From a bacterium (GTDB lineage Bacteria > CLD3 > SB21), in contig JABWCP010000005.1 in the NCBI GenBank assembly GCA_013360215.1, positions 124,001-188,000 of the forward strand: 64,000 nt of DNA. The letters run 5' to 3'. The notes below the pieces were generated by a model that worked only from the letters and a program-made list of their open reading frames with translations, was not told the origin of the DNA and made no database searches. The translations under genes were made by a program, and so were the position numbers. Every line of letters starts with the position of its first letter. Within the stretch, counting starts at the first letter, position 1. This document shows, in pieces, positions 29,869-52,095 of this stretch.

Positions 29869-29935
29869 GAAAGCCGTTAGGCTTTCAAATTTGGTAATGC
29901 CTCAACAAAGGAAAGATGAAACCCGTAGGGTTTCA
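29869..29935 (+). repeat. REP-like hairpin doublet at the 3' side of tnpA
   Basis: GAAAGCC-GTTA-GGCTTTC (29869-29886) and TGAAACCC-GTA-GGGTTTCA (29917-29935). Confidence 0.7.
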
Positions 29936-30403
29936 ATACTCTTCCATAACATTAGAAAAGACATAACGCTCATCGTAGTTAATCTCATACCGCTTAAGCA
30001 ACGCGACGTATTCTTCGCGGAATGTTTGTTTTTTGTGATGCTGTTCTTGATTCTCAATATAGCGACAGACGGTATTTAATTGCGACTTGGCATAGGAAAA
30101 CGCACCATACCCTTCCTGCCAAGAAAACCGGCCCTTGATCCAACCTTTTTCGTTTATGAAATTGGTCGAACATCGTTTGACCTCTTTGACTAGAGCCGAT
30201 AAAGCTTCGTGGGGATCGTATCCTATCAGAAAATGAACATGATCCGGCATGCCATTGATCGCAAGGAGTTTATGGCCTTTGTTTTGAATAATGCCGGTCA
30301 TGTATTTATACAGCTCAATCTTATGATTATCCGGTATCAAACTCATTCGACCTCTGACGACCGAAACGATGTGGATGTAAAGTTGGGTGTAGGTGTTAGC
30401 CAT
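29933..30403 (-). mobile_element. tnpA: IS200/IS605-family Y1 (HUH) transposase, solo TnpA / RAYT-like, no tnpB
   Basis: HIV, MPDHVH (HUH), WQEGYGAFS, YIENQ (catalytic Tyr). Confidence 0.92.
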
Positions 30404-48473: not shown

Positions 48474-50783
48474 TTATTTCATTGATCGTAAAACTATCGT
48501 TGTCTTATTAGCCGTTTGTTCTACGATTACTTCATCAACGAGTTTTTGTATGGCACCAATACGCCGCGCACGGACCGCTTTGCCTTCGGCTTGATCTGAT
48601 CCTTCCGAAATCCTCGCCATATTCCAAAGTGCATTGTTATCCTGATCCGTGATTCGCACTTCGACGCCGTCATCCCACGCTTCGGTTTCGACATGAATCG
48701 ACTTCTTCAGTTCAGACGGCTTGGTACTCCGGGCAGCATAGGTTATCGTTTCGCGGCAAGCGGATAGCATGGACTTGATTTTTTCCGATTCAAAACCACG
48801 ATTCGCCATCATCGTTTGGATCTTATTTTCCGTGTCAAATTCTACATCCGACCCTGGTGTAAATATGAAATGCTCTTTAACGCTTTCACGGCGAGCTATT
48901 TTTAATATGACGGCGTCACTATGTTTCGAATCCATCGCTGTGTTATGAATTTTCTCCGGCCCATCGGTCATCGTGTCGGGCGAAATTCCATTGCTGTGTA
49001 AAAACATAGTTTCACCCGTAGCCAATACAAATGTCGTGGTTTCAAAAGAACCAAGCCATTGAGGCATACCCAGAGCTCTACCGCGTATAGCGATAGATTG
49101 CGTTTGATCCTTTTTTTGCAAAACAGGGTATTCCGACCCCGCATTGATCAACCGTACTCGATGGTCGTGGGTATTGATGATTCCGACACCAAGCGCTATC
49201 GTTCGCGTATCGGTATCCCGATGTTTCATAAAATCCGTTTCAAGTTCGTTCATCCATCGCAAAGGGTCTTGCAGAAGCAAATCACTGCGTTTCCAATACG
49301 CACTCAGCAATCCCTTCATCAGTGCAGCATAAAACGAACCGATGGCGCCTTTACCGGCAGGATCAGCGATAGCAAAAGCAACAAACCCCGGTTGCGGTTC
49401 GGTTATATCGTAAAATTTTCCGTTGTACTCTTGAGCTATCACTAAACGACCATTGATCGTCAGACCGCGCGTTATTAACGGCGATGACCGAAGAGTACCG
49501 CCTTGGATTTTTTTTACAACATTGGATTGAGTCTTCAATTCCGATTGTACATCAGACCATGCACGTTGAACGGATTCGGTTTGTATCGTACTTTCCTTTA
49601 GGGATTTTACCATGTTTGCTATAGCGCGATGAAGAGCGCCGATCTCATCTTGTGGATCAGAGGAAGATTCGCGAAGTGTATGCGTTTGATCACCGGACGC
49701 AACGATCTGAACATCGTCTGCCAACCGACTCAAGGGTAAAAGAATAGTACGACTGAGATACCAACTCAACAAAACTCCGGTCAAAAATCCAAATACGGCC
49801 GAAAAAATCAGTACACGTATCAATGCCGATTCGGCGTATGCCATATTAGGAAAGGCCGTATTCCATACCTGCAAAAAAACCACCGACCAGTTATCACTGC
49901 GTAGCGGGTATCGCGCAAAAAAAATCTGTTCTACGGAATTACGCCCATATCCTTCGTTTTTTATTCCGCGTATTATGTTTTCATTCCATTGTTTTTCGTT
50001 GGTCGCGATGATCTCATTATCATGCAGCAAAAAAACAGATACGCCCGGCATGGATTGTTTTATTTCAAGCAGCCAAGCATTCGTTCTGATATAGAGTAAA
50101 ATATAACGCTTTTGCCCTTCTGCGGTTTCGAGAGGTATAAAATATTTGAGGGTGTGCCACACAGGGGCTTTATTACCATCGCTTATAGGCTGGAATGACG
50201 GTTCGACGAATGCCGGATTGGGCAAATTACGAACGGGATAGTTTTCTTTGTATCCGGTTGATATCGGTTCAGACAAAAGACTTACACCCTGATCGTCCAG
50301 GAGATAAACTGAAAAATAATCTTCGGAATGATGTCTAAGGAATTCGGCTAATATACCCGGTTGCCTCCAAAACGGTTCCGCAGTAAGTCGTTTCCTCAAA
50401 AACTCGCCTTGTTCGGTATGTTTCATAAAACGATTGTTTAAGTTGGCCCGATAGGACGCCAGACGATCAAGGTTGGCCGACAAATCCGCTTCCTGTATCA
50501 CGTGATCGATATGGCCGCGAAAAAGATAACCTACGATTACAAAACAAAATGTCATAGCGATAATGATTACGGAACTCATGCGCCGTGCGATACGTGCTGT
50601 TTTAGTAAAATATAACAGCGCCAGCACACAAAAGGTCGTACCGGTTATACCTGCCAAAACTAAATACAATACACGATCTTCTTCCGCCCAACGAAAAAGA
50701 AAATACACGACACCGGCGAAAAGCAGTAACTGAGAGATTGCAACACGGAAACGGTTTGTCCACCTTGCAGGAAAGGTCATCAT
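48474..50783 (-). CDS. Membrane sensor: TM, extracytoplasmic domain, HAMP, SpoIIE/PP2C-like and RsbW-like HATPase domains (degenerate)
   Basis: PLSRLA...DEIGAL HAMP; AIADPAGKG and INAGS.YP PP2C remnants; C-terminal KLVDEV...TTIVL anti-sigma-like domain. Confidence 0.75.
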   Translation of the reverse strand: MMTFPARWTNRFRVAISQLLLFAGVVYFLFRWAEEDRVLYLVLAGITGTTFCVLALLYFTKTARIARRMSSVIIIAMTFCFVIVGYLFRGHIDHVIQEADLSANLDRLASYRANLNNRFMKHTEQGEFLRKRLTAEPFWRQPGILAEFLRHHSEDYFSVYLLDDQGVSLLSEPISTGYKENYPVRNLPNPAFVEPSFQPISDGNKAPVWHTLKYFIPLETAEGQKRYILLYIRTNAWLLEIKQSMPGVSVFLLHDNEIIATNEKQWNENIIRGIKNEGYGRNSVEQIFFARYPLRSDNWSVVFLQVWNTAFPNMAYAESALIRVLIFSAVFGFLTGVLLSWYLSRTILLPLSRLADDVQIVASGDQTHTLRESSSDPQDEIGALHRAIANMVKSLKESTIQTESVQRAWSDVQSELKTQSNVVKKIQGGTLRSSPLITRGLTINGRLVIAQEYNGKFYDITEPQPGFVAFAIADPAGKGAIGSFYAALMKGLLSAYWKRSDLLLQDPLRWMNELETDFMKHRDTDTRTIALGVGIINTHDHRVRLINAGSEYPVLQKKDQTQSIAIRGRALGMPQWLGSFETTTFVLATGETMFLHSNGISPDTMTDGPEKIHNTAMDSKHSDAVILKIARRESVKEHFIFTPGSDVEFDTENKIQTMMANRGFESEKIKSMLSACRETITYAARSTKPSELKKSIHVETEAWDDGVEVRITDQDNNALWNMARISEGSDQAEGKAVRARRIGAIQKLVDEVIVEQTANKTTIVLRSMK

Positions 50784-51000
50784 TGCGGAATATTCCTCTT
50801 TATAAAAGCAACGTACACAATCCGTTTCTGTAATTCAACTTGGGATATTGATGCTAGCCATAGCGATGCTTGAACAAATTAAAACACGTGCTACTGATAT
50901 GCTCTGCGAAGATTAATATGCAGTATGATTTTTCGTTGGCAACACATAAAATAAAAAACCAATAAACTTCTTTGTTCATTGGTTTTTATTATTTTCGACG

Positions 51001-51074
51001 TGGAGCTGAGGGGGATCGAACCCCTGACCTCATCATTGCGAACGATGCGCTCTCCCAAGCTGAGCTACAGCCCC
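51001..51074 (-). tRNA. tRNA-Ala(CGC)
   Basis: GGGGCTG/CAGCTCC acceptor with G3:U70, CATCG-TTCGCAA-TGATG anticodon arm, GTTCGATC T-loop. CCA not encoded. Confidence 0.95.
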
Positions 51075-51076
51075 AA

Positions 51077-51440
51077 TACAAAACAATTTCAAAGTTACAT
51101 TTAAAATTTACCAGATCGAACCACTGACCTTCCCGCCTTCAAGCGGGACGCTCTCCTCACGCCCACGGCGTGAAACTACAGCCCCGATACAAAAAGCGGG
51201 ACGCTCTCCTCACGCCCACGGCGTGAAACTACAGCCCCGATACAAAACAATTTCAAAGTTACATTTAAAATTTACCAGATCGAACCACTGACCTTCCCGC
51301 CTTCAAGCGGGACGCTCTCCTCACGCCCACGGCGTGAAGCTACAACTGCATTGCAAAAAAATTTCAAAGAAATTTACCAACTAAACCCACTCAACATCCT
51401 GCTTTCGCATCGGGATGTCCTCTAAATCTGAACTAAAGTC
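51077..51440 (-). repeat. Tandem array of truncated, hairpin-substituted tRNA-Ala-like units
   Basis: 51077-51174 recurs at 51241-51338 (offset 164). A 53-nt block is duplicated in tandem (51141 and 51194). A more degenerate copy lies at about 51360-51440. Confidence 0.85.
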
Positions 51441-51486
51441 AAAAAAACTATTTTAAAAACGATAACTTATTATTCAACGATGGCGC

Positions 51487-51515
51487 AATCTAAATGACGG
51501 CATGTAAAAATACAA
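51487..51515 (-). promoter_or_regulatory. Putative stable-RNA-type promoter upstream of the tRNA-like array and tRNA-Ala
   Basis: Minus strand TTGTAT-17 nt-TAGATT followed by GC-rich GCGCCA. Confidence 0.5.
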
Positions 51516-51522
51516 TGAATTT

Positions 51523-52095
51523 TTACAGCTTGGAGAAATACTCATGCCGCAACAAACTGTATAAGTAATGATCCACCCGTCGACCTTGGATATCAAAATA
51601 TTCACGCATAATACCCTCGCGATGAAAACCCAATCGCTCCAGCAAACGTGAAGATGCCATATTTTCGACAGAACATTTGGCCTCAACCCGGTACAAACGG
51701 GCTTCGTAAAATATTTTTTTCAACACAAGCCGTATCGCTTCCGTCCCGTAACCGCGCCCCTGAAAAACGGTCGCAATACTGTATCCGATTTCACCGATTT
51801 CGTGTTCCCAAGAACGTATCGTCAACGTAATCCAACCGATGGGTATACGATCTTCTGTTTTTTCTATGATCCACTGAAACCGTTCACGGTTATAATCGGG
51901 TAAAACATTGGACTGCGAACGTAACAAATCCTGCTCTATCGTATCCACGGTGACCGTACGCAATGGCTGATGCGCTCTTACCGTGGCCTCATTGCGCCAT
52001 ATCACCATCGTCGCCGCATCTTCCGGATAAGGATCGCGCAATACTAAGCGTCCTGACTCACTTTGTGAAGGGGCATGTTCTGCAAAATCAATCAT
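51523..52095 (-). CDS. RimJ/RimL-family GNAT acetyltransferase
   Basis: RLVLR, GEIGY, QGRGYGTEA, N.AS.RLLERLGF.REG. Confidence 0.9.
   Translation of the reverse strand: MIDFAEHAPSQSESGRLVLRDPYPEDAATMVIWRNEATVRAHQPLRTVTVDTIEQDLLRSQSNVLPDYNRERFQWIIEKTEDRIPIGWITLTIRSWEHEIGEIGYSIATVFQGRGYGTEAIRLVLKKIFYEARLYRVEAKCSVENMASSRLLERLGFHREGIMREYFDIQGRRVDHYLYSLLRHEYFSKL

Follow-up and report, generated by a model that had tools for sequence, protein, structure and literature searches.

Truncated tRNA-Ala(CGC) copies with hairpins in place of tRNA arms: a possible relic of nuclease-linked tRNA-gene amplification in a bacterium of the CLD3 lineage

A stretch of 64,000 nucleotides from a bacterium of the GTDB lineage CLD3; SB21 (assembly GCA_013360215.1, contig JABWCP010000005.1, positions 124,001 to 188,000; hereafter the window, numbered from its first letter) was found to contain four truncated copies of the 5' part of a tRNA-Ala(CGC) gene, one of them degenerate and another partial, between a promoter region and the intact gene. 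Hairpins occupy the places of tRNA arms in these copies, and comparable units were found beside tRNA genes of other genomes, in some cases together with a gene for a small GIY-YIG nuclease. On balance, we lean towards reading the array as a nuclease-less relic of tRNA-gene breakage, repair and tandem amplification, comparable to the events described for SegB of phage T6, that was later colonised by a lineage-specific hairpin. The array is probably non-coding debris and the feature in the window a functionless scar, that is, taken alone, a relic without obvious function.

The order on the minus strand was GNAT acetyltransferase gene, promoter-like stretch, unit 0, unit 1, unit 2a, unit 2b, intact tRNA-Ala(CGC) and terminator (Table 1), and re-reading of the sequence reproduced the coordinates and letters that a first-pass annotation, made from the sequence alone, had given for the array. 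As that annotation had held, the units are collinear with tRNA-Ala(CGC), carry hairpins for the D arm and the anticodon arm and are truncated at the 3' end. A unit is built from the tRNA start, a hairpin of 7 bp with a 3-nt loop for the D stem and loop, GGAGAGCG and an 18-nt hairpin for the 17-nt anticodon arm; in units 1 and 2b the second hairpin is followed by the variable loop and 5' T stem, and the unit ends past the T loop. The stretches in common with the real gene are the first 10 nt (identical in units 2a and 2b), GGAGAGCG and 16 of 17 nt over the variable loop and T arm. Unit 2a ends inside the anticodon-place hairpin. AT-rich spacers separate unit 0 from unit 1 (51379-51350), unit 1 from unit 2a (51277-51239) and unit 2b from the intact gene (51113-51075). 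Unit 0 has a native-like D arm without an inserted hairpin and a decayed anticodon-place hairpin at 51415-51397, and its position, judged by the promoter-to-tRNA distance, is about that of the tRNA itself in relatives. Head-to-tail repeats that include tRNA sequence were present: Tandem Repeats Finder reported a 53-nt period (2.0 copies, 100% match, 51141-51247) and a repeat search found a 131-nt pair of 94% identity at a spacing of 164 nt.

The units did not behave as tRNA genes in any search. None of the four was called by ARAGORN, whose only call here was 51000-51074, and none was matched by any of 4227 Rfam models searched over 50500-52000 at E<=10. The predicted fold of the intact gene was cloverleaf-like and closed by the acceptor helix. 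Unit 2b was predicted to form two stable hairpins (-29.3 kcal/mol, z -2.2) and unit 1 was likewise stable (z -2.8); no tRNA-type acceptor helix appeared in the unit folds, the acceptor 3' strand and a complete T arm being missing. The stable-RNA-type promoter proposed by the first-pass annotation is weakly supported: the scan that gave the match TTGAAT-16-TAAAAT at 51477-51450 yielded 3 sites against 1.4 +/- 1.4 in shuffled sequences. The sole open reading frame (ORF) adjoining the array is the GNAT gene.

That the repeats might be an artefact of assembly is scarcely credible. Arrays of similar kind did break the assembly at two other places in this genome (described below) and no public contig spans the array, but exact pieces that cross unit-spacer boundaries occurred in metagenome contigs of three DNA runs, each from a different study. 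These contigs matched 51076-51174, 51198-51269 and 51309-51700 without differences, one DNA run extending the exact cover to 51198-51338; the listed pieces leave 51175-51197 and 51270-51308 uncovered. The window stretch as a whole was detected in 20 of 24 listed public runs, with at least half of the sampled words in 14. These findings support the view that the array is not an artefact of a single assembly record; its copy number and the 53-nt junction are those of this assembly, because no listed contig piece spans the whole array.

A genome search for the hairpins and for similar units beside other tRNA genes, which the first-pass annotation had proposed, indicated that the hairpins are a recurrent, non-random feature that stands exactly in the places of tRNA arms. 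The window genome (G000) comprises 3.72 Mb in 56 contigs with 44.8% G+C and 46 ARAGORN tRNA calls. The 17-nt pattern of the D-place hairpin was present at 10 sites, about 0.03 being expected for its 14 fixed bases; homopolymers aside, no other 7-bp perfect hairpin stem in the genome was as common (10 of 1845). Elsewhere in the phylum it occurred at one site in each of 3 of the 19 other genomes compared, and a reversed pattern used as control had no site across the 20 genomes. No conserved word flanked the hairpin among 7 distinct sites. Beyond the window, the hairpin stood before tRNA-Val(TAC), between that tRNA's first 10 nt and anticodon stem, at two sites in an intergenic cluster on contig C43, at C19:9044 in a remnant flank of a GIY-YIG element (a perfect copy, the paralogous flank holding an imperfect one that differs at 2 arm positions) and at 4 or more sites in a tandem array of 50-nt period 3' of tRNA-Arg(CCT) that is cut short at two contig ends.

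A k-mer screen flagged 12 of the 46 tRNA genes for nearby partial self-copies, and hairpin-bearing partial copies were confirmed at five (Ala-CGC, Gly-CCC, Val-TAC, Val-CAC and Arg-CCT); the remaining flagged genes were mostly neighbouring tRNAs that share common T-loop words, some of them unchecked. At tRNA-Gly(CCC), at least three tandem 5' units with a close variant of the hairpin at the anticodon-arm place lie upstream, across two contig ends, and at tRNA-Val(CAC) a downstream 3' fragment has the other hairpin type at the T-arm place. The broken arrays, of 50-nt period after tRNA-Arg(CCT) and of 115-nt period before tRNA-Gly(CCC), were seen at the contig ends C37/C47 and C39/C48, and these arrays of tRNA fragments probably caused the breaks. 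Separately, at C45:34983-36656 (locus L167), an AT-rich insert of 1.5 kb with two ORFs lies behind tRNA-Val(TAC) and ends in a 69-nt stretch that repeats positions 8-76 of the tRNA exactly and retains the native anticodon arm. Neither ORF gave a family at useful E-values, and the locus has the look of a recent duplication of this kind that carries other cargo and no hairpins.

Comparison within the phylum, for which a collection of 20 genomes including that of the window was available, showed directly that such units recur beside tRNA genes, as the first-pass annotation had asked to be checked. Hairpin-swapped units were found in G004, G005 and G014, and the anticodon-place hairpin between GAGCG and AGGT in 4 of the 20 genomes (the window genome, G003, G004 and G005). 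The GNAT gene as upstream neighbour marked the orthologous locus in G007, G010, G001, G008, G003 and G014; in the first five of these it is followed, after about 100 nt, by tRNA-Ala(CGC) without units, and tRNA-Ala(CGC) was likewise without units in G006, G009, G016 and G017. Altogether, 10 of the 12 relatives examined at tRNA-Ala(CGC) had no 5' unit. In G004, one 5' unit precedes the tRNA and an 81-aa GIY-YIG ORF begins 3 nt past it, followed by a hairpin and the last 15 nt of the tRNA. In G005, one or more 5' units at a contig break precede the tRNA, and an 87-aa GIY-YIG ORF that starts on the last base of the tRNA runs into a hairpin-bearing tRNA copy extending from the D loop to the 3' end; at a second locus of this genome, the same ORF and hairpin are joined to the 3' end of tRNA-Ala(GGC). 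G009, a congener of G005, has a bare tRNA-Ala(CGC). The GNAT locus of G014 reads promoter, tRNA-Ala(CGC), nuclease ORF, hairpin-swapped 3' unit, decayed ORF and second 3' unit. 5' units were present in 2 of 3 nuclease-bearing relatives as opposed to none of the 8 relatives examined that lack the nuclease gene.

Units of the window genome, G004 and G005 could be aligned with one another, the leader motif TTTGAAAT-TGTTTT included, which was invariant. A native-like D arm was kept in unit 0 and in the G005 unit, and the G004 unit has the other hairpin type at the spot of the window genome's own hairpin. The tRNA that adjoins the nuclease gene has a common T-stem variant in G004 and G014. In G007, which has no array, a leader that resembles the window spacer lies 5' of the tRNA, and a CCAATGA...TTGGT terminator like that of the window also follows the tRNA in G008 and G003; by this likeness the 3' flank of the window's tRNA, with neither 3' unit nor nuclease gene, looks ancestral. 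At two loci of another kind, L020 (G003:C11) and L017 (G005:C71), tRNA-Ala(TGC) of the rRNA operon is followed by a dead copy with many different perfect hairpins of 15-17 nt, of the form T..GCC-NNN-GGC..A, which occupy the anticodon place, the T loop and the interior of the acceptor strand.

Outside the phylum, the anticodon-place hairpin with D-stem and variable-loop flanks was found in at least 121 public stretches, mostly from Bacteroidota and also from several other phyla; 80 of these were fetched as loci with 700-nt flanks and contained 122 units, 29 loci having more than one. A separate same-strand tRNA lay within 350 nt at 58 of the 80 loci and was Ala-GGC at 37 of the 58, the other partners being Val, Ile, Thr, Arg, Asp, Met, Gln and Ala-TGC; at 19 loci, many of which lie at contig ends, no tRNA was called on the same strand. 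Units lay upstream of the tRNA at 23 loci, downstream at 30 and on both sides at 5. Breakpoints were read for the 90 units (of 122) that had a comparison tRNA, 32 having none. Among upstream units, 23 of 41 start at tRNA position 1, and the end of every one of the 41 falls in the T stem or T loop (positions 44-61), whereas downstream units start in the D region and extend to the 3' end in 28 of 49 cases; some 3' units are preceded by a terminator. Lineages differ in where the units end, in how many copies they have and in which arm is replaced. Inside its outer stem the hairpin was variable (88 distinct sequences in 96 locus-level entries) and nonetheless palindromic, with at least one extra pair in 61 of 78 against 19.5 expected and at least two in 15 of 20 against 1.25. 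The single match in a viral contig, of high G+C and without visible tRNA context, was treated as unrelated.

The link to the nuclease was observed directly from both sides. A homologue of the G004/G005 nuclease ORF was present within the flanks of 24 of the 80 hairpin-sampled loci, and the ORF in these loci stops at the D-loop TAG, which lies a few bases short of the hairpin. Complete modules of ORF and 3' unit were repeated in tandem at L092, L045 and L111. Sampling by the nuclease, seeded with 7 Bacteroidota-type sequences and hence leaning to Bacteroidota, gave 79 metagenome loci with 94 copies, from which 18 truncated copies were dropped and 76 full-length copies kept. On the upstream side, where 65 copies had room, 36 began no more than 150 nt behind a tRNA (Ala-GGC in 34) and 24 more behind a tRNA 3' fragment. 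On the downstream side, a T[CT]CCG...CGG[GA]A hairpin stood at the stop codon in 50 of the 74 copies with room, and a T-loop word came next in 42. The sixth stem pair of these hairpins was Watson-Crick in 45 of 50 (A-T 28, C-G 16). Hairpins in the nuclease-sampled loci were preceded by GAGCG at 56 of 96 sites and followed by AGGTC at 51, and at 11 sites the hairpin came after the variable loop, at the T-arm place. Their lengths clustered at 18 nt (53 of 96), near the 17 nt of an anticodon arm.

The tRNA-linked nuclease is a bare GIY-YIG domain (Pfam GIY-YIG, 5.5e-16 and 7.3e-18). An alignment of 17 sequences of 79-87 aa contained invariant Y, G, R, W and K and near-invariant H, N and E, and the ORFs of the relatives have the conserved Tyr, Arg, His-Asn and Glu without any extra domain that characterise UPF0213/Slx1-like proteins. 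The closest solved relatives, UPF0213 structures 1zg2 and 1ywl (4e-11 and 8e-10) followed by SLX1 (8e-7), consist of a minimal catalytic domain alone, and an NCBIfam scan gave nothing beyond sub-threshold matches to group I intron endonucleases. In the available text of a 2006 survey of the GIY-YIG proteins (PMC1564403), bacterial Slx1-like proteins are minimal stand-alone GIY-YIG domains for which neither a function or target nor any linkage to tRNA is mentioned, so that the association with hairpins and tRNA fragments noted here goes beyond that account, while eukaryotic Slx1 is involved in the maintenance of ribosomal DNA copy number.

The window genome has six matches to GIY-YIG (PF01541), all on contigs other than that of the window, and four small GIY-YIG genes. 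Two copies on C19, neither of them near a tRNA, are flanked by TTCCCGC-NNNN-GCGGGAA hairpins; on C29 and C14 the copies have flanking repeats of other kinds. These C19 flanks and the perfect D-place copy at C19:9044 are counted in favour of the hairpins belonging with nuclease genes. Word arrays of GGGAACGACA-GCTTTCGC with TTCCCGC and CACCCGC hairpins were also seen at the end of C4 (98413-98730) and the start of C49 (1-250), and their repeat family is the one that flanks the C19 nuclease genes.

Among known systems, the layout most closely recalls that of SegB, a free-standing GIY-YIG homing endonuclease encoded in the tRNA cluster of phage T6, which in the available text of PMC13096335 cuts inside tRNA genes and brings about recombination-dependent tandem amplification, also in trans or at distant loci, giving unstable arrays whose junctions unite the 3' end of its own gene with the 5' region of a tRNA. 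By our reading, the preferred SegB motif, RAWTSGAAC, appears to be the complement of the T loop. In the relatives' loci, as in T-even phages, a GIY-YIG gene adjoins tRNA genes and the 3' end of the nuclease gene is joined to tRNA sequence in tandem units. The array in the window is read as a relic of SegB-like events because the fusion of the ORF to the D region, the tandem modules and the T-arm breaks of upstream units match. The systems differ in that the present loci lie on a cellular chromosome and not in a phage, and in that the relatives' nuclease is of the Slx1/UPF0213 type, of 80-90 aa, without the DNA-binding part of SegB. The repeated segments here are dead tRNA fragments, whereas SegB repeats whole tRNAs and so raises their dosage, and the replacement of arms by hairpins is not reported for SegB in that text.

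The succession of events that we infer would run as follows. The T arm or its vicinity would be cut by a nuclease whose gene once adjoined the tRNA and later disappeared, or by the product of one of the four small GIY-YIG genes at other places in the genome, acting in trans, and repair would duplicate the leader and tRNA positions 1 to about 60 in tandem, leaving only the promoter-distal copy whole. In the dead copies, perfect GC-rich hairpins like those beside the nuclease genes would then take the place of tRNA arms, and the hairpin-bearing units would multiply by unequal recombination or slippage to give the 164-nt-spaced and the exact 53-nt duplications. If the tRNA recombined with a former 3' unit, the nuclease gene would be lost and the trailer would return to its ancestral state. 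Three roles of the hairpin would fit the data: it may destroy a cleavage site, it may be a structure on which an Slx1-like enzyme acts (eukaryotic Slx1 acts structure-specifically on branched DNA), or it may interrupt homology and so shield a duplication from collapse.

Several observations weigh against this account. No GIY-YIG gene was found by the PF01541 search at the window locus or on its contig, and because no such gene is in place and the flank looks ancestral, the link of the window array to a nuclease is one of homologous layout. No nuclease ORF lay within 700 nt at 56 of the 80 hairpin-sampled loci, and only 1 of 6 two-sided loci was informative for the idea that a resident gene had been split. 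The intact tRNA beside the nuclease would itself be a target, and the model gives no reason for its escape; nor do breakage and repair alone account for the precise replacement of arms by hairpins or for an outer stem conserved across phyla. The spacer resembles the native leader, so that a plain tandem duplication without any element is possible as judged from this resemblance. The nuclease has no DNA-binding domain and is related to SegB only in the catalytic fold, and tblastn with the G005 nuclease gave no match in 50,697 phage records. We know of no activity for a tRNA-linked nuclease of the Slx1/UPF0213 type.

A wider proposal is tentative and rather doubtful, namely that small nucleases of the Slx1/UPF0213 type and GC hairpins make up an unrecognised class of selfish cassettes, widespread in the tRNA genes of bacteria, the hairpin being nuclease substrate or immunity scar. 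Through cycles of cutting and repair, resident tRNA genes would be split and one working copy kept or brought in, while tandem 5' and 3' hairpin-swapped fragments would be shed. A hint that a cassette can bring or convert the tRNA may be seen at L103, where the acceptor strands of the 5' and 3' units are complementary to each other and differ from those of the intact tRNA between them, and in the T-stem variant of G004 and G014. The acceptor strands at L103 are counted in favour of the relic reading as well.

It is unlikely that the hairpins are autonomous miniature palindromes, similar to repetitive extragenic palindromic (REP) sequences or miniature inverted-repeat transposable elements and perhaps moved by a Y1 transposase, that settled in dead tRNA copies with the nuclease genes as bystanders. 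The first-pass annotation had offered, as one of two ideas, palindromic elements that target tRNA loops, followed by tandem amplification, and the recurrence of the hairpins and the exact 53-nt and 94% identical 164-nt-spaced duplications bear out part of that proposal. The rank of the D-place hairpin as commonest stem of its class, its near confinement to the window genome and the dead tRNA-Ala copy of G003 with its many different hairpins are also in its favour. Free insertion of palindromes into loops fits poorly because the arms are replaced, not interrupted, and no conserved target word flanks the sites. As with REP sequences and their associated tyrosine transposases, short extragenic palindromes recur in a genome with a single IS200-like Y1 transposase gene, which is in the window and flanked by small CC-loop-GG hairpins; however, those hairpins differ in sequence from the ones in the units, the palindromes have no conserved flanking tetranucleotide, the transposase scored 31.6 against an NCBIfam REP-transposase cut-off of 80 bits (REP_Tyr_transpos, NF047646), and Y1_Tnp was present in 15 of the 20 phylum genomes as opposed to 4 with hairpin-swapped units. 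Only about 10 copies of the hairpin exist, whereas REPs usually number hundreds of copies. Less probable again is an origin without nuclease or mobile element, in which the leader and a 5' stretch of the tRNA were doubled by replication slippage, and templated strand switching made the arms into perfect hairpins. Templated correction of quasi-palindromes turns imperfect hairpins into perfect ones through several changes at once, and the perfect and imperfect versions of the D-place hairpin in paralogous flanks resemble its outcome. The exact 53-nt duplication with 2-nt microhomology, the 164-nt-spaced duplication, the native leader-like spacer, the cluster of hairpin lengths near that of an anticodon arm and the variable yet palindromic interior all speak for such a process. 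It does not account for an outer stem that differs from the local arm and is common to several phyla: TCCCG/CGGGA had no match among the 31 anticodon arms compared (14 others, including that of tRNA-Ala(CGC), were left out), the stems of the adjacent real tRNAs are CATCG/TGATG in the window and CTTGC/GCAAG at Ala-GGC loci, and in many phyla the same outer stem accompanies tRNA genes for Ala, Val, Ile, Asp, Thr, Arg and Met. Nor does such a process account for the strong linkage with the nuclease ORF.

There is a very small chance that the units function as a structured leader RNA, transcribed together with the tRNA and acting as a processing platform, decoy or regulator. The first-pass annotation had put forward such a decoy or processing RNA, and no evidence favouring that role emerged. 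The only plausible promoter region does lie upstream of the units, which in turn precede the tRNA, so the precursor probably includes them; their hairpins are stable, and stem pairing is kept through two-sided changes, as at the sixth pair. A contig from an RNA library covers 51221-51618 at depth 5, but it may derive from DNA carry-over and so is no proof of transcription. The frequency of relatives with no 5' unit, the variation of copy number, end points and replaced arm with lineage and the position of 3' units behind terminators speak against a functional leader, and units that lack the acceptor 3' strand and the T stem cannot fold like a tRNA. More remote still is the possibility that the units are leftover attachment sites of integrase-driven islands integrated at the tRNA gene. 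Integrases usually duplicate the 3' part of a tRNA, whereas the units in the window are 5' parts, their ends vary (44-61), their arms are replaced where an attachment core would stay identical, and no integrase adjoins the array. The exact 69-nt copy of tRNA-Val(TAC) 1.5 kb downstream of the gene is a point in favour of this origin, as is the statement in the available text of PMC9897764 that tRNA fragments from integrating elements are common in prokaryotes. That source attributes tRNA gene fragments to elements of the integrase type or to CRISPR activity, and its partial, non-canonical copies beside real genes, which confuse annotation, resemble the present units; tandem 5' fragments with replaced arms, variable ends and no integrase set the latter apart.

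In the literature, subscription-only papers and the supplements of PMC13096335 excepted, no description of hairpin-swapped tRNA fragment arrays and none of a tRNA linkage of bacterial Slx1-like genes was found. As far as this search went, the arrays are a widespread and apparently undescribed variant of nuclease-linked tRNA-gene amplification. If the relic reading is correct, a very common bacterial family with solved structures and no known role, UPF0213/Slx1-like, would gain a setting of tRNA genes, hairpin substrates and repeat amplification, and the "genomic accordion" of T6 SegB would have a counterpart in the chromosomes of several bacterial phyla, Bacteroidota above all, where it leaves long-lived scars; if the proposal of selfish cassettes is correct, it would supply the first biological role for bacterial Slx1-like proteins. 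In practical terms, the scars break short-read assemblies, two other arrays ending contigs in the window genome, and they place hundreds of bases of structured leader 5' of some tRNAs. Hairpin units are also open to tRNA miscalls by ARAGORN, which gave Cys, Lys, Val or an undetermined isotype for a few.

Table 1. Features of the tRNA-Ala(CGC) array and its surroundings in the window
Feature	Position in window	Strand	Basis or remark
Terminator hairpin and T run 3' of tRNA-Ala(CGC)	50954..50987	-	14-pair stem plus T tail
Intact tRNA-Ala(CGC), sole functional-looking copy	51000..51074	-	ARAGORN; Rfam tRNA/tmRNA-clan match 50998-51074
Spacer/leader directly 5' of real tRNA	51075..51113	-	Contains TTTGAAAT-TGTTTT leader motif
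Unit 2b, tRNA-Ala positions 1 to ~60, hairpins at D-arm and anticodon-arm places	51114..51185	-	
Partial unit 2a (51238-51194) with 8-nt leader piece, the upstream 53-nt duplicate	51186..51238	-	Tandem Repeats Finder
Spacer copied from 51075-51113	51239..51277	-	Repeat search
Unit 1, built like unit 2b, acceptor strand decayed	51278..51349	-	94% over 131 nt
Shorter, older spacer	51350..51379	-	Sequence reading, alignment
Unit 0, most degenerate (73% copy)	51380..51440	-	Repeat search, alignment
Promoter-like match ~10 nt 5' of unit 0	51450..51477	-	No statistical support
GNAT acetyltransferase gene	51523..52095	-	Pfam Acetyltransf_3, 2.3e-27
D-arm-place hairpin TCACGCC-GTG-GGCGTGA	51157-51173, 51210-51226, 51321-51337		7 bp, 3-nt loop; lineage-specific
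Anticodon-arm-place hairpin TCCCGC-TTGAAG-GCGGGA	51131-51148, 51295-51312		Widespread type

Some further observations were made in passing. The Y1 transposase gene of the window (29933-30403, minus strand; 156 aa; Pfam Y1_Tnp, 3.8e-27) is the only IS200-like one in the genome, and its flanking hairpins include TATTCCC-GTTA-GGGAATA upstream and GAAACCC-TAC-GGGTTTC downstream; gene and hairpins could be a domesticated arrangement of the REP type. A link of this gene to the tRNA units was dropped on account of its other flanking hairpins and a phylum distribution unlike that of the units. In the hairpin-sampled loci, ARAGORN calls on hairpin units were noted at L033, L108, L049, L066, L042 and L075, as Ala-CGC, Lys, Val, Cys and one undetermined isotype. 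Two cases from the candidate phyla radiation may be genuine tRNA-Ala(CGC) genes with an anticodon stem equal to the outer stem of the hairpin, which might hint at the origin of the latter. In the window genome, a 79-nt ARAGORN call of tRNA-Ala(CGC) at C4:81386-81464 falls within an apparent heavy-metal efflux pump gene and is probably a false positive, and at C14:133300-134200 a 103-aa GIY-YIG ORF is followed by at least five tandem 39-nt repeats, bracketed by inverted palindromes that contain GGTTCGA.

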